Positions 48,601-54,975 of a stretch of DNA of 64,000 nt are shown in pieces. The notes below the pieces were generated by a model, which was not told where the DNA came from, did no database searches, and was given only the letters and a program-made list of their open reading frames with translations. Each line of letters opens with the position of its first letter. Position 1 is the stretch's first letter. Origin of the DNA: Aliidongia sp. Lineage in GTDB: Bacteria > Pseudomonadota > Alphaproteobacteria > ATCC43930 > CGMCC-115725. The stretch is from contig DATLIZ010000041.1 in assembly GCA_035539155.1 (NCBI GenBank), positions 135,776 to 199,775 of the forward strand. Direction: 5' to 3'. The translations under genes and the position numbers were made by a program.

Positions 48601-48915
48601 GACGGCGAGACCTTCGCCGCCGGCATCAAGGCGCTGAAGCTCGCCCCCCTCATCGGCCGCCGCACCGCCGGCGCCGGCGTCTGGCTCAGCGACAATGTGA
48701 GATTCGTCGACCGCGGCTCCGCCCGCGTCGCCGAGGACGCGCAATACGCCATCGGCACCGGCGAATGGCTGGTCGAGGGCAAGGGGGTGGAGCCCGACAT
48801 CGATGTCGAGAACCCGCCCAACGCGACGTTCAAGGGCGGCGACGCACAGCTGGAGGCGGCGATCAAGCTGCTGCAGGAGGAGATGGTGAAGGAGCCGGTT
48901 AAGGCGCTGCGGTAG
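45613..48915 (+). CDS. tricorn protease homolog (beta-propeller + PDZ + S41 peptidase)
   Basis: 1100 aa with a signal peptide. Repeated PDG/SPDG WD-like propeller blades are followed by a C-terminal S41-type region. An unusual KD-rich insertion lies at residues ~550-585. Confidence 0.8.
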   Translation: MKLRRLAVSLAALCTVLAGPALAEGYFRYPTLAGDTVLFTAEGDLWSVPLAGGRAARLTTHPAEETNAVASPDGKEVAFSAAYDGPIEVYVMPVAGGRPRRVSFEGNRSVAVGWTPSGEVLYSTQSANGPSDQRVIVAVDPKSLKRHTLPLADANDAAVSLDGKSVYFTRFGLAVSNDNARFYRGGLLSRLWRFGLDGAHEAEPLPVTDKANDRRPMPLGDRVYFLSDRDGPDNLWSMNADGGDRRQLTHYTDFGIRSASLAQGRIVYQLGADLHVYDAITDTDKTLAIDLASDFDQERPHAVKNPLDFYEAAHFAPDGEHVAVTALGHVALMGVGPLRRVEVATRPESRARGAVVSPDGKWVYAFSETGDANEIWRFAADGSPDRKQLTKDAAGFRTDLWPAPDGKSLAHATADGKLFLLDLGSGDNQLIDTATGADLDTVVWSADSKHLAFVRSDSDVERAQLFLYEPATKTKQRLTTDKYESKAPAFTPDGKWLYFLSDRHFESRNHAPWGDRNLGPYFDRRAQIYALALQADERFPFLPKTELTQDDKKDADKKDSDKKDGDKDKKDDKKSEDKKADDKPGHDAGPAIEWNGLADRLYEVPMAPGNFEALETDGKRLYVLDDDGGGEHKVLKTLPIEDKDPKPVDFLGNVRDFTLSGDRKKIFVRRWAPSDKIGDMLILDAGAKAPGDLDPAKVRTDGWTLEVDPREEWREIFADAWRLHRDFFYDAKLHDLDWARVRAKYAPLVERVTDRSELNDVLGQMMAELGALHSQIIPGDLRKAQDGGQPGFLGARLEREAEGYRIAHIFRTDPELPNDRAPLARPGTDAKEGDLVTAVNGRPATDGDDIALLLANQAGQQVLLTLKRGDRQVKTIVTAIDARGESSLRYSDWEEERRAKVLAAGQGKVGYLHLRAMGPEDIATFAREFYAQYDRDALIIDVRRNNGGNIDSWVIEKLLRRAWAFWKPRLGTRHGTNMQQTFRGHLAVLIDERTYSDGETFAAGIKALKLAPLIGRRTAGAGVWLSDNVRFVDRGSARVAEDAQYAIGTGEWLVEGKGVEPDIDVENPPNATFKGGDAQLEAAIKLLQEEMVKEPVKALR
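47261..47363 (+). repeat. degenerate 9-nt-periodic repeat (gacaagaaR) encoding a DKKD/DKKDS low-complexity insert in the tricorn-like protease
   Basis: Protein segment DDKKDADKKDSDKKDGDKDKKDDKKSEDKKADDK. Confidence 0.6.
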
Positions 48916-49003
48916 GGGGTGGACGGTAGGTAGTGAGTTCAGATGTCACGACAAGGACCCATTTCTTCTTGCGTGCTCACGGCCCGTATTCTATGTCCGC
49001 ACA

Positions 49004-49468
49004 ATGCCGTCTACTGCTCCCTCTCACCAGCCACACCGCCCGGATTTCTCGGACGTTACGCCTGGACGTCGGCGCAATATGCAGGCAAACGTTGGCAAGA
49101 ATACAAAGCCGGAAATGTTTATCCGGAGGATTCTTCATGCGATGGGATACCGCTATCGTCTGCATGTCAAAGGAATGCCGGGGAAACCCGACATTGTCTT
49201 CTCGGCACGCCGCAAGATCGTGGAAATTCGTGGTTGCTTCTGGCATGGGCACGGATGCTTCCCGATCGGACAGTTACCGAAAAGCCGTACTGAATATTGG
49301 TCTCCGAAAATAGCCGGCAATCAAGCTCGGGATGCCCTAAATATCGCTGCCTTACGCGCGGATGGATGGGAAGTCCTAGAGCTGTGGGAGTGCAGAATAC
49401 GAGCCGCGCCGGACGACGTTGCCAACGAGCTTGTGGCGTTCCTGGGTTCTACTAGCGTACAGGGTTGA
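49004..49468 (+). CDS. vsr: very-short-patch repair endonuclease
   Basis: Motifs GKPDIVF, RGCFWHGHGC, PKSRTEYWSPKIAGNQARD and GWEVLELWEC align with E. coli Vsr. It sits adjacent to an m5C methyltransferase. Confidence 0.85.
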   Translation: MPSTAPSHQPHRPDFSDVTPGRRRNMQANVGKNTKPEMFIRRILHAMGYRYRLHVKGMPGKPDIVFSARRKIVEIRGCFWHGHGCFPIGQLPKSRTEYWSPKIAGNQARDALNIAALRADGWEVLELWECRIRAAPDDVANELVAFLGSTSVQG

Positions 49469-49546
49469 AATCGGAAAGCCGCACGGCGAAATGTTCATAA
49501 ACGGGCCGGAAACAAGAATTTTTTGGAATCCAGACCAGTGGGCCGC

Positions 49547-50572
49547 TCATATCGGGTAGGTCGGCAGCGAATCCAGAATCAGCTGAGCTGTGTCTCGGGG
49601 ACTGAGGGCCATGTAAAGCTGATCAATCGCCTTGCTCGGCGTCCCACCGGCGAGAAGCGATATCATCGACGCCGCCTTGTACCGGCCCGCAACATCACTG
49701 CCTTTCGTCGTCTCAAGATGGGCGTGAAATTTAATGGCAGGCCCGCGGAGCACATAGCCGATGATGAATTTTAGGACGTTCGCCTCGAACAAGGCCTGAT
49801 ATAGACGGTCGCTGCGAGTACTGGTCTTGACAGCGATAGCAAACAGGAAGTTCCGACCTTCGAGCGATGATTGGATGTCTTGCCATGCTGTTTCCAAGCG
49901 TTGCTGACTGGCGTACGATAAGTCTGACAATGGCGTCATGAAATTCTGATAGCCGGGCGGCATGGGGTCCGGCATTCGCAACCCAAGAATATCCGGAGTA
50001 CTCAGCTTAAGCTCCATACCATCCAATTGGAGGGCTTGATCGAACGCCGCATATGCCGCACGGGCCGATTGATTGAGCAGCTTGGTAGTATCGGCACCGC
50101 GAGACATCTTCACGATTGCGATCTTCCGGGCAGGCGTCGGGATCGCGTGGGGCGGCTGAGTGAATGTAGTGGATGACCACACTCCTGTATCCATGAAGAC
50201 ATTCCAGGCCGCAGCGGCGTTCCAGAGCGCAGCAGCCTCCATTATCTCGTATATATCGCCGTCCACCTTGGCTGCTTGCTGTTTCGAAACCCGGAAACCC
50301 GTGGCGAAGTTGATTTCTCCGGCCAGTTTCACATTGTGCAGGGCCTGCATCCTGTAAACCCGGGAATGTCTCGACGGGTCGGGATCACCTTCAGACCCGG
50401 GAACAAACTCACCAAATGCGCAATCCATCATCCTTTGTTGTACTATCTGAAACTCAGTTTCCCGGTCTTTGACCCGGTTGACCCGCGTGTCGATCAAGCA
50501 GCCCGTTCCAGCAGCATGGCAAGCAGTGCAGATAGCGGTTCTTGTTGCGAGATCGGGGAACTCGTAGGGCAT
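49547..50572 (-). CDS. putative type II restriction endonuclease (family not recognisable)
   Basis: 341-aa ORF whose ATG overlaps the TAA of the upstream C-protein gene (TAATG). It is divergent from an m5C MTase and next to vsr, which is the canonical C-R / M layout. No PD-(D/E)XK or HNH motif could be assigned by eye; there is a CxxCH..C cluster near the N-terminus. Confidence 0.45.
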   Translation of the reverse strand: MPYEFPDLATRTAICTACHAAGTGCLIDTRVNRVKDRETEFQIVQQRMMDCAFGEFVPGSEGDPDPSRHSRVYRMQALHNVKLAGEINFATGFRVSKQQAAKVDGDIYEIMEAAALWNAAAAWNVFMDTGVWSSTTFTQPPHAIPTPARKIAIVKMSRGADTTKLLNQSARAAYAAFDQALQLDGMELKLSTPDILGLRMPDPMPPGYQNFMTPLSDLSYASQQRLETAWQDIQSSLEGRNFLFAIAVKTSTRSDRLYQALFEANVLKFIIGYVLRGPAIKFHAHLETTKGSDVAGRYKAASMISLLAGGTPSKAIDQLYMALSPRDTAQLILDSLPTYPI

Positions 50573-50823
50573 TAAGTTCCCCCCGCCCCTGTGCTCTGTT
50601 TCCGCGCGATCTCGCGGGCAGTCGCAAAAATTACATCAAGGTCTGCACCGAGTGCGTCGGCAACCTGTTGAAGGATTTTCAGCGAAGGATTACGACGGCC
50701 ACGTTCGATTCCGGATACGTAGGTCCGATCCAAAGACGCTCGATCGGCGAGGTCTTCTTGGCTCAATCTGAGGAGCGTCCGGTGCTGCCGCACCGAGGCG
50801 CCGAAATATCTGGCAAGATCCAA
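50572..50823 (-). CDS. restriction-modification controller (C) protein, XRE-type HTH
   Basis: 83 aa; LSQEDLADRASLDRTYVSGIERGRRNPSLKILQQVADALGADLDVIF closely follows the C.PvuII/C.AhdI family pattern (LSQEELA..RTYIS.IERG.RN). It has a TTG start and is translationally coupled to the downstream ORF. Confidence 0.8.
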   Translation of the reverse strand: MDLARYFGASVRQHRTLLRLSQEDLADRASLDRTYVSGIERGRRNPSLKILQQVADALGADLDVIFATAREIARKQSTGAGGT

Positions 50824-50884
50824 CGGCGACTCGACGAAACAATTTGGACAAGTTTCGTAGGCTCACTGGAAGGCAGCGACCACG

Positions 50885-50940
50885 GACTATGAGTCACTTG
50901 GAAAAATATTTTTCCCAAGATAGCTAGTCATCCGGTGACT
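50885..50940. promoter_or_regulatory. candidate C-box operator/divergent promoter region (GACTATGAGTC; 23-bp AT-rich palindrome CTTGGAAAAATATTTTTCCCAAG; AGTCATCCGGTGACT)
   Basis: GACT-N3-AGTC resembles C-box half-sites. It is located ~60-115 bp upstream of the C gene within the 239-bp divergent intergenic region shared with the MTase gene. Confidence 0.45.
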
Positions 50941-51062
50941 GCCCACAGCCAACGTCGACGCCGAGATTGCGGCGCCAAAAACGAGCATATAAGGTTTAGA
51001 CCATCGGAGGGATGGGACTCTTTAGGCTCGCCACTCCGCCGGTGCCAAGGAGGGCGAACGCG

Positions 51063-52325
51063 ATGAGAAAATTGCAGGCGGTTTCACTGTTCGCCGGGTG
51101 TGGCGGTTTCTGCGAAGGCATGGAACTGGCCGGGATCGAAGTGAAAGTCGCCGTCGAGTGGGATAAGTATTCTTGCGAGACTTATCGCGCAAATTTCCCC
51201 CGGACGCCGCTATTCGAAGGCGATGTACACGATTTCCTTGCCGGGGATGGCGATGCGCACCGAAAGGAATACGGGCTGGGGGCTATCGATCTCGTGTTCG
51301 GCGGACCACCATGCCAGGGCTATAGCCAAATCGGCCCTCGCGATCTCACGGACGACCGCAACGAGCTTTACCTCCAATATGCACGAGTCGTGGGTACGCT
51401 GAAGCCACGCATGTTTCTTATGGAAAATGTTCCGAATCTGCTGCTGATGAAAAAGGGACATTTTAAGGACGCCATCCTGAAGCACTTCGCAAGTATGGGC
51501 TACAGCAACACAACGTTCTTGAAGGTCAGCGCGGCCGATTTCGGCGTGCCTCAGACCAGGGAACGAGTATTCTTTTTTGGGAGCCGGGATGACATCGATA
51601 TACCCGTCGATCTGCGCGCGTATGCCAATGGCGTGCTTGAAAAGCTAAAGGTCGCCAAACCCGTGACGGTTTGGGAGGCAATCGGTGATCTGCCGTCCGA
51701 AGTCGTCCACTCCGGCAAGACAATGCCATACCCCGCTGCTAAGAACTTATCTTCGTTCCAGAAGCTGATGCGTCTCGATGAAAGCCTAGCCCCCTACTCA
51801 CAGGCTACCAAACGGAAGCGCGCTCTCGGCAAGGCCAAAGCTGAGCTGCACAATCATCACACCAAGGAAATGCTTAGCAAACGGGCGCATCTTATTTCGT
51901 TCTTAAAGCCCGGCATGAAGGCTGACTCACTACCAAAGGAAATATGGGATGGCGCACGCCCCGAAAAGTGGCGCCGGCTACACCCGGATTTGCCAAGCTA
52001 CACGATCCTGGCACAGATGCACCGTGATTTGAGCGAATGGGTTCACCCGAAACTTGAGCGTTGGATCACCGTGCGTGAGGCGGCACGCCTGCAGTCCTTC
52101 CACGACGGCTTCATTTTCAAATCTTCCGAATGGCAGATGTTGAAGCAAATTGGAAACGCTGTCCCCCCACTCCTGGCATTCGCGGCAGGCAAAATGGTGA
52201 CCGCTATCCTTGAGGCAGCTGACGGGGCGGTAATCGCCGATCTAATGCCCGCGCAAAAACTGGTGCCGATCCAGCGGCGACAAGTGCGCAGCAGCCGGCG
52301 CATCACTGAGGATGCTGCGCTATGA
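51063..52325 (+). CDS. dcm: DNA (cytosine-5)-methyltransferase
   Basis: Motif I SLFAGCGGF, motif IV GGPPCQGYS (the PCQ catalytic Cys), motif VI ENV, and motifs QTRERVFF and GNAV. Start at MRKLQAVSLF after an AAGGAGGG RBS. Confidence 0.9.
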   Translation: MRKLQAVSLFAGCGGFCEGMELAGIEVKVAVEWDKYSCETYRANFPRTPLFEGDVHDFLAGDGDAHRKEYGLGAIDLVFGGPPCQGYSQIGPRDLTDDRNELYLQYARVVGTLKPRMFLMENVPNLLLMKKGHFKDAILKHFASMGYSNTTFLKVSAADFGVPQTRERVFFFGSRDDIDIPVDLRAYANGVLEKLKVAKPVTVWEAIGDLPSEVVHSGKTMPYPAAKNLSSFQKLMRLDESLAPYSQATKRKRALGKAKAELHNHHTKEMLSKRAHLISFLKPGMKADSLPKEIWDGARPEKWRRLHPDLPSYTILAQMHRDLSEWVHPKLERWITVREAARLQSFHDGFIFKSSEWQMLKQIGNAVPPLLAFAAGKMVTAILEAADGAVIADLMPAQKLVPIQRRQVRSSRRITEDAAL

Positions 52326-53590
52326 CCGGTATAGATGCCACAGAAGACGAGATCAAATCGGCGGCCGAAGATGCTGCCGCCGAGAGCGAAGCTAAGCCAG
52401 AGACGAGTGCCGCAGCACTGGCTGACACCGCCCGCGCCGCCGACTGGTTTGAGGGTGAGCAGGAGGAAGATGCTTCAGCGTCATTCAAAGACTACGAGGT
52501 CACCGCATCGCCCAACGACTTTAATATCACCACGATCGTTAACTTCGTTAAGTCCGGTGCGGTGAAGATCCCCGGGTTTCAGCGAAATTATGTGTGGGAT
52601 ATTAAGCAGGCTAGCAGGCTGATCGAATCCATCTTGATTGGTCTGCCAATTCCACAGATCTTCCTCTACCAGGAAGCCAAGAACAGCTTCCTCGTGGTTG
52701 ACGGTCAGCAGCGCCTGATGTCGATTTATTATTTCGTTGAGGGAAAGTTTCCTAAGGTCTCTAAGCGGCCTAACTTGCGCAGGATCATGTCCGAGAACGG
52801 CAAGTTGCCAGACGCAATCCTCGGGGACGACCAGTACTTCACAAAATTCAATCTTCAGCTGGCTTCCAAGACAGGCCCGTCATCTCGTTTCCATGGGCAG
52901 AACTTCGCGACGCTCGGAGAGAATCAGATGGACTTCAATCTCCGAACGATCCGAAACGTGGTTATCAAACAGAATTCGCCGCAGGAAGAACCAGACACTT
53001 CCGTGTTCGAGATTTTTAACCGACTAAACACCGGTGGCGTGAACCTCCGCCCGCAAGAGATCCGATCCAGTTTGTATCACTCTGACTTCCTAAACGCCCT
53101 CAACCGAGTGAATCTCTCTCCGATATGGCGCAAGCTTATAGGGCTGCCAGACCCAGACTTACATGACAAGGACGTGGAGATCCTATTGAGGGTGTTTGCG
53201 CTCGTCGCCGATGGAGACCGATATACGGAGCCTATGAGCACGTTCTTGAATGGATTCGCTAAAAAGGCCCGTTTGACGCCAGCGCCAGTCATCGAATACA
53301 TGGAAAGGCTGTTTGCAGCATTCTTCGAACGAGTAAAGGATATTCCAAGCGAGAGCTTCGCTGTAACGAAATCGGGCCGCTTCAATATCGCCGCATTCGA
53401 AGGCATTTTCCGCGCCGTTTGCACGCCTGCGTTCAAGGCAAATAACCTCGAAATCCCGACAATGACCGCTGCCCAGTTGCTGGCCGTACGCGATGATCCG
53501 GAATTTCTTGCTGCCACTCAGCAGGGGGTCGGACGTACTACTTTCGTCAAACAGAGGGTTGAACGGGCCACGGCGATACTAGGGGTATAA
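52322..53590 (+). CDS. DUF262 domain protein (ParB/Srx-like NTPase-nuclease fold, DGQQR motif; GmrSD N-terminal-like) lacking a DUF1524/HNH C-terminal domain
   Basis: 422 aa with FLVVDGQQRLMSIYYF (the DGQQR signature). Its start ATG overlaps the dcm stop (ATGA). The C-terminal 150 aa is helical with no His-Me finger motif. Confidence 0.8.
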   Translation: MTGIDATEDEIKSAAEDAAAESEAKPETSAAALADTARAADWFEGEQEEDASASFKDYEVTASPNDFNITTIVNFVKSGAVKIPGFQRNYVWDIKQASRLIESILIGLPIPQIFLYQEAKNSFLVVDGQQRLMSIYYFVEGKFPKVSKRPNLRRIMSENGKLPDAILGDDQYFTKFNLQLASKTGPSSRFHGQNFATLGENQMDFNLRTIRNVVIKQNSPQEEPDTSVFEIFNRLNTGGVNLRPQEIRSSLYHSDFLNALNRVNLSPIWRKLIGLPDPDLHDKDVEILLRVFALVADGDRYTEPMSTFLNGFAKKARLTPAPVIEYMERLFAAFFERVKDIPSESFAVTKSGRFNIAAFEGIFRAVCTPAFKANNLEIPTMTAAQLLAVRDDPEFLAATQQGVGRTTFVKQRVERATAILGV

Positions 53591-53595
53591 CTCCG

Positions 53596-54219
53596 GTGAG
53601 CGTCGCTGCGATCGAAGCTTTCTACCGCGGGAACGTCGAGCTGATTGAGTTCCTTCTCGCGAACGAGCAACTGTCCTATGCTTCTGATGCGGCTGATAAT
53701 TTTAGGCGATCCCTCGTCATTGCTATTGGAAGCTTTTTCGAGGGAGAGATCTCCGACATTGTGCGCCAGCTTCCATTCCACCATGCTAACGGAAACGCGT
53801 TCCTTACTTCGTTGATCGAGAGAAAGGCGGTGAGCCGGCAATACCATACGTATTTTGATTGGGAAAACTCGAGCGCTAACAGTTTCTTCTCGATGTTCGG
53901 GGCCGAATATAAAGCAGCATGCCAGAGGAAGCTCAACGACGAGCCCTCATTCAAATCGGCCGTCCAAGCGTTCCTAAGCCTTGGGGCAACCCGCAATCAA
54001 ATCGCTCATAAAAATTATGTCTCGTTCAATGTAGATAAGACGCCTGAGGATATAGTTAAAGAGTTCCGACAGGCGTTAACATTTGTAGAATACGTGCGAG
54101 CAAGCCTATTACCACCCAAACAGCCAAATTCAGCTGAGCAATCTGGTTACCCGGCAGGGGGTGCGCAAAATAATGCTGGTGGTTCCAGAGATTCTGAATC
54201 TGGCAGGATATCACCATAA
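53596..54219 (+). CDS. HEPN-domain protein (Rx4H motif: GATRNQIAH), MAE_28990-like
   Basis: 207 aa with a GTG start 6 nt after the DUF262 stop (AGGGG RBS). All-alpha composition with a conserved Arg-x4-His in the C-terminal half, as in HEPN RNases. Confidence 0.65.
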   Translation: MSVAAIEAFYRGNVELIEFLLANEQLSYASDAADNFRRSLVIAIGSFFEGEISDIVRQLPFHHANGNAFLTSLIERKAVSRQYHTYFDWENSSANSFFSMFGAEYKAACQRKLNDEPSFKSAVQAFLSLGATRNQIAHKNYVSFNVDKTPEDIVKEFRQALTFVEYVRASLLPPKQPNSAEQSGYPAGGAQNNAGGSRDSESGRISP

Positions 54220-54333
54220 GGACGCTCGTCTTGGCATCTCGTGATCTCGTTAGTAGTTCATTCAGAAAGTGGGCGCCCGCAGCAACCCGACGGGCAGTGC
54301 CTACGACAGCGGAATAGACTGGCTTCACACCCC

Positions 54334-54975
54334 CTACCCCGCATCCCCCTGCCGCATCGGATGCGCCCGCGCGAACGCGTCCAGCCCCAGACACTCCCGC
54401 CCGATTCGCCTCACCGTCGGATAGGCCTCCATCGCCACCCCCAGATCCTCGGCCATCACCAGCTGCGGCACGAGGCAGATGTCGGCGAGGCCGGGCTCGT
54501 CGCCCTGGCAGAAGCGGCCGGTGCGGTCGTCCTCGGCCAGCAGCGCCTCGCAGGCGGCGAGGCCGTCCGCCGTCCAGTGCCGGCACCAGGTCTCGACCGT
54601 CGGCTTGTCGTGGCCGAGCGGGGTCCTGAGATAGCGCATGACGCGGAGTGTCACCAGCGGGTGGATATCGGAGGCCAGGAGCTGGGCCAGGCCGCGGACG
54701 CGCGCCCGGTCGCCCGGATGGCCGGGCAGGAAGGGCGGGTTCGGGTGGGTCTCGTCGAGATATTCGATGATCGCGAGCGACTGGCCCAGCACCTCGCCGC
54801 CCTCATCCTCCAGCACCGGCACGAAGCCCTGCGGGTTGAGGTCGAGGAATTCCGGCGCCCGGTGCGCGTTCTGGCGCAGGTCGAGCGAAGCCGTCTCGTA
54901 CTCGATGCCCTTCAAGTTGAGCGCGATGCGGACGCGGAAGGCGGCCGGCGAGCGGAAATAGCTATGGAGCTTCAC
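54334..54975 (-). CDS. maiA: maleylacetoacetate isomerase (zeta-class GST)
   Basis: 213 aa with a MKLHSYFRSPAAFRVRIALNLKG N-terminus and zeta-GST motifs. Confidence 0.85.
   Translation of the reverse strand: MKLHSYFRSPAAFRVRIALNLKGIEYETASLDLRQNAHRAPEFLDLNPQGFVPVLEDEGGEVLGQSLAIIEYLDETHPNPPFLPGHPGDRARVRGLAQLLASDIHPLVTLRVMRYLRTPLGHDKPTVETWCRHWTADGLAACEALLAEDDRTGRFCQGDEPGLADICLVPQLVMAEDLGVAMEAYPTVRRIGRECLGLDAFARAHPMRQGDAG

Follow-up and report, generated by a model that had tools for sequence, protein, structure and literature searches.

A probable mobile defence cassette in Aliidongia joins a controller-regulated type II restriction-modification module to a PD-T4-2-kind DUF262–HEPN pair

Within a 64,000-nt stretch of an Aliidongia sp. 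metagenome-assembled genome (GCA_035539155.1, contig DATLIZ010000041.1, forward-strand positions 135,776 to 199,775), which in its entirety is referred to here as the window and whose own numbering is used throughout, three adjacent genes encode a 5-methylcytosine (m5C) DNA methyltransferase (hereafter methylase), a DUF262 protein and a HEPN protein. Our analysis indicates that these genes probably belong to a 5.3-kb mobile composite cassette, in which a restriction-modification (R-M) module under a controller (C) protein has been combined with a DUF262–HEPN module of the PD-T4-2 kind. The components are individually known, namely a methylase from a conventional type II R-M system and a PD-T4-2-kind pair, and what is specific to this locus is their fusion in one operon.

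The C5-cytosine DNA methyltransferase gene comes first in the unit (51063-52325, + strand, 420 aa). AGGAGG stands ahead of its start (51049-51054), the gene was called at equal length in relatives, and its product matched methyltransferase models in Pfam (PF00145, 3.7e-64), TIGRFAMs (TIGR00675, 7.3e-53) and PADLOC (MTase_II, 1.5e-115). The gene for the DUF262/GmrSD_N protein, which is PD-T4-2_A- and NsnA-like, follows at 52322-53590 (+, 422 aa). The tetranucleotide ATGA at 52322-52325 supplies both its start codon (ATG) and the methylase stop codon (TGA), and GAGGA lies at 52308-52312, 9 nt upstream of the ATG. The DUF262 gene ends with TAA at 53588-53590, and the gene for a RiboL-PSP-family HEPN protein, a predicted RNase effector, occupies 53596-54219 (+, 207 aa), its GTG start codon falling 5 nt further on at a position shared with its homologues. 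A first-pass annotation, made from the letters of the sequence, had described the ATGA overlap just as it is seen here; it had also given the HEPN gene its own ribosome-binding site, which is present as GGGG at 53582-53585, 10 nt upstream of the GTG, and a spacing of 6 nt, which we count as 5 nt. The impression of a single operon on the strand opposite the C and restriction endonuclease (REase) genes was likewise sound, with three co-directional genes on the + strand and the C and REase genes on the − strand. Scanning for sigma-70 promoters and terminators revealed no promoter, and no terminator between or 3' of the genes. The arrangement is not a chance one, since the 4-nt overlap of methylase and DUF262 genes was retained in four relatives (L001 and L081-L083; DUF262 identity 70-89 %). 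Methylase, DUF262 and HEPN genes form one co-directional unit.

The DUF262–HEPN pair is a very widespread module, found in bacteria and archaea, on plasmids and in prophages. When the HEPN alignment was run against genomes sampled at one per species, 80 loci were recovered, distributed among Proteobacteria, Bacteroidota, Cyanobacteria, Chloroflexota, Bacillota, Actinomycetota, Planctomycetota and archaea. Of the 77 genome loci that could be evaluated, 73 had a full-length homologue of the window DUF262 protein (40-70 % identity) encoded immediately upstream on the same strand; the remaining four comprised two with a truncated DUF262 gene and two without one. Among metagenome contigs the pair was intact in 50/50 that could be evaluated. 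Counted to a HEPN start estimated by homology, the two genes were separated by -4 to +15 nt at 59 of the 69 loci and by <30 nt at 65 of them. Such near-universal pairing is indicative of an obligate two-gene module. The expectation that the pair would be conserved elsewhere was therefore borne out, and because it is kept almost wherever the HEPN gene occurs, the earlier proposal of a split sensor (DUF262) and effector (HEPN) is a reasonable reading of how it may act. Both families are large, with >3,300 DUF262 matches at E <=1e-10 among the candidates scored and at least 687 clusters of the HEPN subfamily at 50 % identity (E up to 1e-10). The loci with an intact HEPN gene and a truncated or missing DUF262 gene were L035, L037, L045 and L052, from Scytonema, two Nostoc and a Desulfobacterales metagenome-assembled genome. 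Orphan HEPN genes of this sort should be toxic if the DUF262 sensor also neutralises its partner.

The DUF262 protein consists of three segments: an acidic tail (residues 1-59), a ParB/sulfiredoxin-fold nucleoside triphosphatase (NTPase) domain and an all-helical C-terminal domain. Pfam PF03235 (GmrSD_N) matched residues 70-252 at 4e-32, and the motifs FQR (52577-52585) and DGQQR (52700-52714) were invariant or nearly so across 34 DUF262 homologues. In the structural model (predicted local distance difference test, pLDDT, 74) the C-terminal half was all-helical, and no histidine in this half was conserved among the same 34 homologues. Given the helical C-terminal half and the lack of a conserved histidine there, a cryptic HNH/DUF1524 domain was rejected, no HNH motif or fold being found; the protein is not a full GmrSD, and its earlier description as DUF262 with the HNH half absent stands. 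The closest solved structures were the type IV enzymes BrxU and SspE, and a PDB sequence search returned a weak BrxU match only. This architecture has been named ParB-DUF262 plus ParBDB, and homology to the middle domain of SspE is the basis on which DNA binding is assigned to the C-terminal ParBDB (PMC12065111). The tail (52322-52498) is low in complexity and predicted to be disordered (pLDDT ~30), and it contains an invariant Trp42 in a 'W-F/Y-E/D' context and an invariant Tyr58, which distant homologues conserve as well. It could serve as a partner-binding peptide or as an autoinhibitory, DNA-mimicking one.

The HEPN protein matched Pfam PF18735 (HEPN_RiboL-PSP) at 1.3e-18, and its Rx4H motif, R133-N-Q-I-A-H138 (53992-54009), was invariant in 25/25 homologues. 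Its model was all-helical (pLDDT 87); a Foldseek search of this model against the PDB gave no significant match and a PDB sequence search with the protein gave no credible one. It is chiefly the PF18735 match and the invariant Rx4H that identify the protein as HEPN, and these together with the helical model agree with the first-pass annotation of a HEPN protein bearing this motif. Membership of the MAE_28990/MAE_18760 family, which had been named as well, was not upheld, as NCBIfam contained no match to the protein; a Pfam search at E up to 0.1 recovered PF18735 only, PF18737 being absent. Characterized Rx4-6H HEPN domains are generally RNases (PMC3710099). A second motif, RQYHTYFDW (residues 81-89, 53836-53862), was also invariant in the 25 homologues. 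Beyond approximately residue 175 the protein is not conserved, and its unconserved C-terminal 30 residues reach the right junction of the low-GC island described below (window 54220-54330).

A pair of this composition has a published precedent. The first-pass annotation held that no DUF262 plus HEPN pair had been characterized experimentally, which overlooked the anti-T4 defence reported in 2022 for PD-T4-2, a system listed as 'DUF262, HEPN' (Table S1, Vassallo et al. 2022, Nat Microbiol, PMC9519451). PD-T4-2 guards E. coli K-12 against T4 and works in E. coli as a two-gene clone, and T4 forms plaques again on ECOR65 once the system has been deleted (PMC9519451). Its HEPN family is given as PF18735, with DUF262, in a review (PMC10952713). 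The claim of an uncharacterized system was thus wrong for family and phenotype and right in that the mechanism is unpublished. With PADLOC models, the window DUF262 protein matched PD-T4-2_A at 4.7e-38 and the HEPN protein matched PD-T4-2_B weakly at 1.6e-3, while the NsnA model of the Menshen system matched the DUF262 protein at 1.6e-52 (residues 35-419 to model positions 31-378 of 385). Menshen requires NsnB and NsnC, and since both are absent at this locus the architecture is that of PD-T4-2. Identity with Menshen was rejected on the same ground of gene content: the next gene encodes the 207-aa HEPN protein, and the island ends at ~54240, after which housekeeping genes follow. The window pair is therefore of the PD-T4-2 kind, a placement based on hidden Markov models and architecture, and it most plausibly belongs to a subfamily sister to the ECOR65 system.

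The pair is autonomous: IncX1 plasmids of E. coli and Salmonella carry it without a methylase, as do an Exiguobacterium plasmid and a lambdoid prophage of E. coli. At locus L085 (E. coli IncX1 plasmid NZ_CP062857.1, 2579-5093), there is an 8-nt overlap between the 3' end of the replication initiator gene and the pair, which encodes a 365-aa DUF262 protein and a PF18735 HEPN protein. Pairs of this type were found in ~20 conjugative E. coli/Salmonella plasmids, and the IncX1 pair may be part of the plasmid backbone. At locus L168 (E. coli NRG 857C, NC_017634.1, 3840-5556), DUF262 and HEPN genes lie in a lambdoid prophage next to a truncated major capsid pseudogene, and this pair was present in 31 complete E. 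coli chromosomes. The prophage DUF262 protein displayed 47 % identity to that of the window, the prophage HEPN protein aligned to the window HEPN family with an hhalign probability of 99.9 and kept both the Rx4H and RQYHTYFDW motifs, and the two matched the PADLOC PD-T4-2 models at the level of the window proteins. The L168 pair offers a ready experimental stand-in for the window subfamily. The window DUF262 DNA itself had no match among complete E. coli genomes; the E. coli relatives were found by way of the plasmid homologue.

The other half of the composite is evident from the surrounding genes. A composition profile delimited an island of six genes at 48930-54240 (5.3 kb) with a GC content of ~0.54 against ~0.68 in its flanks, bordered by a peptidase gene ending at 48915 and a maleylacetoacetate-isomerase-like gene at 54334-54975 on the − strand. 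Divergent from the methylase unit, on the − strand, lie the gene for a type II endonuclease of the Cfr10I/Bse634I family (49547-50572; Pfam PF07832, 3.8e-26; PADLOC REase_II PDLC03561, 7.8e-48, a full-length match) and the gene for a C protein, an HTH_3 regulator (50572-50823; Pfam HTH_3, 3.1e-15; PADLOC Control_protein, 5.4e-16), whose stop codon overlaps the REase start. The C–methylase intergenic region contains two palindromes of the GACT...AGTC type that are kept in five related cassettes. The first, GACTATGAGTC (50885-50895), stands 62 nt ahead of the start of the C gene and falls within an invariant block of a five-locus intergenic alignment. The second, located by alignment and pattern search at 51016-51027, is found 36 nt 5' of the methylase ATG and reads GACTCTTTAGGC in the window and GACTCTTGAGTC in most relatives. 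Both look like C-boxes and are candidates for that role. Beyond the REase, on the + strand, is a gene for a Vsr very-short-patch repair endonuclease (49004-49468; Pfam PF03852, 6.3e-23; TIGR00632, 1.9e-40; PADLOC Vsr, 2.8e-23), the true start of which is likely an internal ATG at ~49079. Vsr is the usual companion of m5C methylases.

The methylase is accordingly not an orphan, as its REase, C protein and candidate C-boxes are all present, and an orphan methylase was rejected on this basis. It is best described as the modification half of a C-controlled type II R-M system, with cognate activity predicted. With the second candidate C-box only 36 nt from the methylase ATG, DUF262 and HEPN may also be regulated by the C protein, and we infer that the whole methylase–DUF262–HEPN transcript would come under its control.

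Comparison with relatives supported mobility of the fused cassette. The island was collinear with a Mesorhizobium locus over 49145-54002 at 66-70 % nucleotide identity, and the full Vsr-R-C/methylase-DUF262-HEPN block was present in L001, L081 and L082 (a Mesorhizobium genome, a Xanthobacter genome and a metagenome contig). In L083 the R-C/methylase-DUF262-HEPN portion was kept and the only sign of Vsr was a tblastn match, which overlaps a gene annotated as HNH_2 on the opposite strand. The flanks varied between loci and included an integrase, a relaxase with MobC, an insertion sequence element and the rpoA operon. Conservation of the block amid differing flanks indicates that the fused cassette moves as a unit, and the methylase–DUF262–HEPN operon is conserved in an alphaproteobacterial clade. 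A scan of viral contigs produced one locus only, the same element as L083. In the window, no integrase gene was found in the island, a tRNA scan detected none there or elsewhere in the window, and a search for direct or inverted repeats at the island ends gave only short chance matches and no flanking repeats. Additional genes were observed in two relatives: an HNH_2 endonuclease gene lies 3' of the Bse634I-like endonuclease gene in both L081 (3391-4236, between that gene and Vsr) and L083 (3295-4233), and in L081 genes for an nSTAND NTPase and an AAA_15 ATPase stand directly 3' of the HEPN gene, making up a larger defence island.

How far the methylase belongs with the pair was assessed across the collection. 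By tblastn, an m5C methylase lay within 8 kb of the pair in 11 of the 80 genomes (~14 %), with Vsr in most of these, and in two of the 32 metagenome contigs that extended far enough upstream. Among the two nearest open reading frames on each side at ~66 loci, Pfam identified six m5C methylases, two N6/N4 methylases and a few type I/III-like helicase/methylase genes, the remainder being heterogeneous and including housekeeping genes. The methylases near pairs were almost always m5C enzymes, often with Vsr (L002-L004, L020, L059, L013, L072, L074 and L075). Recognized endonucleases usually stood beside the methylases, as in L013, L059 and L072 (NaeI in the last), and those identified at methylase-linked loci were Cfr10I/Bse634I-like or NaeI. 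Cfr10I/Bse634I-like and NaeI enzymes cut CCGG-core sites; this pattern may be a coincidence of GC-rich genomes. A separate arrangement was found in Akkermansia phage Chambord (L084, ON453894.1, 2021-5697), where genes for a CI-like repressor (Peptidase_S24), an m5C methylase, a DUF262 protein and a PF18735 HEPN protein follow one another. The Chambord DUF262 gene overlaps the methylase gene by 8 nt, the methylase is non-orthologous to that of the window (29 % identity), and no endonuclease was annotated or detected. Chambord is an independent fusion of m5C methylase, DUF262 and HEPN. Taken over all loci, the methylase is mostly not a partner of DUF262–HEPN in any general sense.

These data bear on the leading alternative, in which methylase, DUF262 and HEPN proteins would act together as a methylation-aware system, the sensor reading m5C, either as unmethylated invader DNA or as a foreign versus self mark, and unleashing the RNase. 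The 4-nt overlap shared by the window, L001 and L081-L083 is in keeping with it, as are the Chambord methylase gene overlapping the DUF262 start just after the repressor gene, and a frequency of nearby m5C methylases far above random expectation. HEPN-ParB-methylase operons were moreover noted computationally by Anantharaman et al. 2013, and the paper on Menshen puts forward the same possibility for NsnA. However, ~85-95 % of pairs lack a nearby m5C methylase, PD-T4-2 functions as two genes in E. coli (PMC9519451), the window methylase has a complete set of cognate R-M partners, the methylases in L013, L059 and L072 adjoin recognized REases, and clustering in defence islands alone explains the methylase enrichment. 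We consider this alternative unlikely. The related suggestion of the first-pass annotation, that the methylase provides self-protection for the pair, was not supported, since a cognate REase, C protein, C-boxes and Vsr adjoin the methylase and most pairs are methylase-free.

Several points nonetheless weigh against a composite of two independent modules of the kind that we favour. The methylase–DUF262 coupling persists across 60-89 % protein identity, Chambord has an independent operon of the same three gene types with no visible endonuclease, and ~14 % of genomes carry an m5C methylase within 8 kb, mostly with Vsr; together these suggest that the methylase link may exceed mere neighbourhood. 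The PD-T4-2_B match of the HEPN protein is weak (16.5 bits), and as NsnA outscores PD-T4-2_A, automated tools probably would not call PD-T4-2 here. Phage defence by the window subfamily is predicted by analogy, and since no mechanism of PD-T4-2 was found in the literature searched, the same applies to every mechanistic step. For the alphaproteobacterial clade and Chambord specifically, one might propose that m5C methylase, DUF262 sensor and HEPN RNase are one unit in which sensing of m5C status triggers RNA degradation, a proposal that we regard as distinctly unlikely. Were a reading of this type true, it would amount to R-M logic with an abortive RNase, rather than a DNase, as the restriction arm, and in the window the C protein would time expression of all three genes with that of the methylase.

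The genomic settings of the pair raise a further alternative, namely that it is mainly a toxin–antitoxin-like addiction module stabilizing its carrier element, with HEPN as toxin and DUF262 as neutralizer. Pairs do reside in prophages, on plasmids and in islands flanked by integrase or relaxase genes, and the IncX1 pair is coupled to the gene for the replication initiator. The antitoxin-first gene order also fits, but it would be unusual for a simple antitoxin to be a 420-aa NTPase whose catalytic motifs are strictly conserved, and the related PD-T4-2 gives measurable phage defence both natively and heterologously, although addiction and defence are not mutually exclusive. A role mainly in addiction appears very unlikely. 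Finally, it is highly improbable that the pair acts on DNA in a type IV-like manner, with the DUF262 domain or the HEPN protein replacing DUF1524 as the DNase that attacks modified phage DNA: the term nuclease has been used for some ParB-fold domains ('ParB nuclease' in Anantharaman 2013), the closest solved structures belong to type IV enzymes, and PD-T4-2 was selected on T4, whose DNA contains glucosyl-hydroxymethylcytosine, but cleavage in BrxU, GmrSD and SspE is assigned to DUF1524, with DUF262 as the NTPase/sensor (PMC10952713), characterized Rx4-6H HEPNs generally act on RNA (PMC3710099), and neither protein conserves a DNase-type motif.

Returning to the composite cassette, its operation may be outlined as follows. 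In the first module, the REase and C protein would be expressed from the − strand and the m5C methylase divergently from the + strand, with Vsr offsetting m5C deamination. The second module, DUF262 and RiboL-PSP-HEPN, would have been captured directly behind the methylase gene in an alphaproteobacterial lineage, and such capture, with the ATGA overlap, suggests that it is translated from the methylase's mRNA. By analogy with GmrSD, BrxU and SspE, the DUF262 protein would be the sensor or switch, its NTPase and helical domains binding invading, probably modified, phage DNA. Binding or hydrolysis of NTP would alter its conformation, and this change would release or activate the partner HEPN protein, which may then cut RNA via Rx4H and, with translation shut down, halt the growth of the phage, a response likely to be abortive or growth-arresting. 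The methylase would guard the host from the adjoining endonuclease, and the pair would be independent of it. While the window locus adds little on the identity of the module, it is a natural construct of pair plus methylase under an R-M controller, and Chambord is a methylase–DUF262–HEPN operon without an endonuclease. The two loci are suited to two questions, the reading of DNA modification by ParB-fold sensors and the activation of HEPN RNases.

Among known systems, PD-T4-2 shares with the window pair the two-gene order of DUF262 then HEPN, a DUF262 protein without DUF1524 and a HEPN protein in PF18735, and both are carried by mobile elements and widely distributed among phyla. The window pair differs from it in the weakness of the match to the PD-T4-2_B model, in the invariant RQYHTYFDW of its HEPN protein, in the acidic tail with invariant Trp of its DUF262 protein and in the translational coupling of the pair to an m5C methylase within a type II R-M cassette. 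With Menshen (NsnABC; Millman et al. 2022; PMC12065111), the window pair shares a full-length NsnA match of the ParB-DUF262 plus ParBDB architecture, a DUF262 protein as the proposed sensor and methylases occasionally nearby; in contrast, it lacks the NsnB ABC ATPase and the NsnC inPIN effector, having a HEPN gene next, after which the island ends. Relative to GmrSD, BrxU and SspE, the DUF1524 HNH domain is absent and the effector is a separate HEPN protein, presumably an RNase, and unlike HEPN-MNT toxins (e.g. PDB 7ae2), the HEPN protein is partnered by a ParB-fold NTPase rather than a nucleotidyltransferase antitoxin. C-controlled Cfr10I/Bse634I-type R-M systems with Vsr correspond to the window cassette in REase family, m5C methylase, controller, C-boxes, divergent C-R and M units and adjoining Vsr, and the cassette departs from them in that its methylase unit carries two extra, unrelated defence genes.

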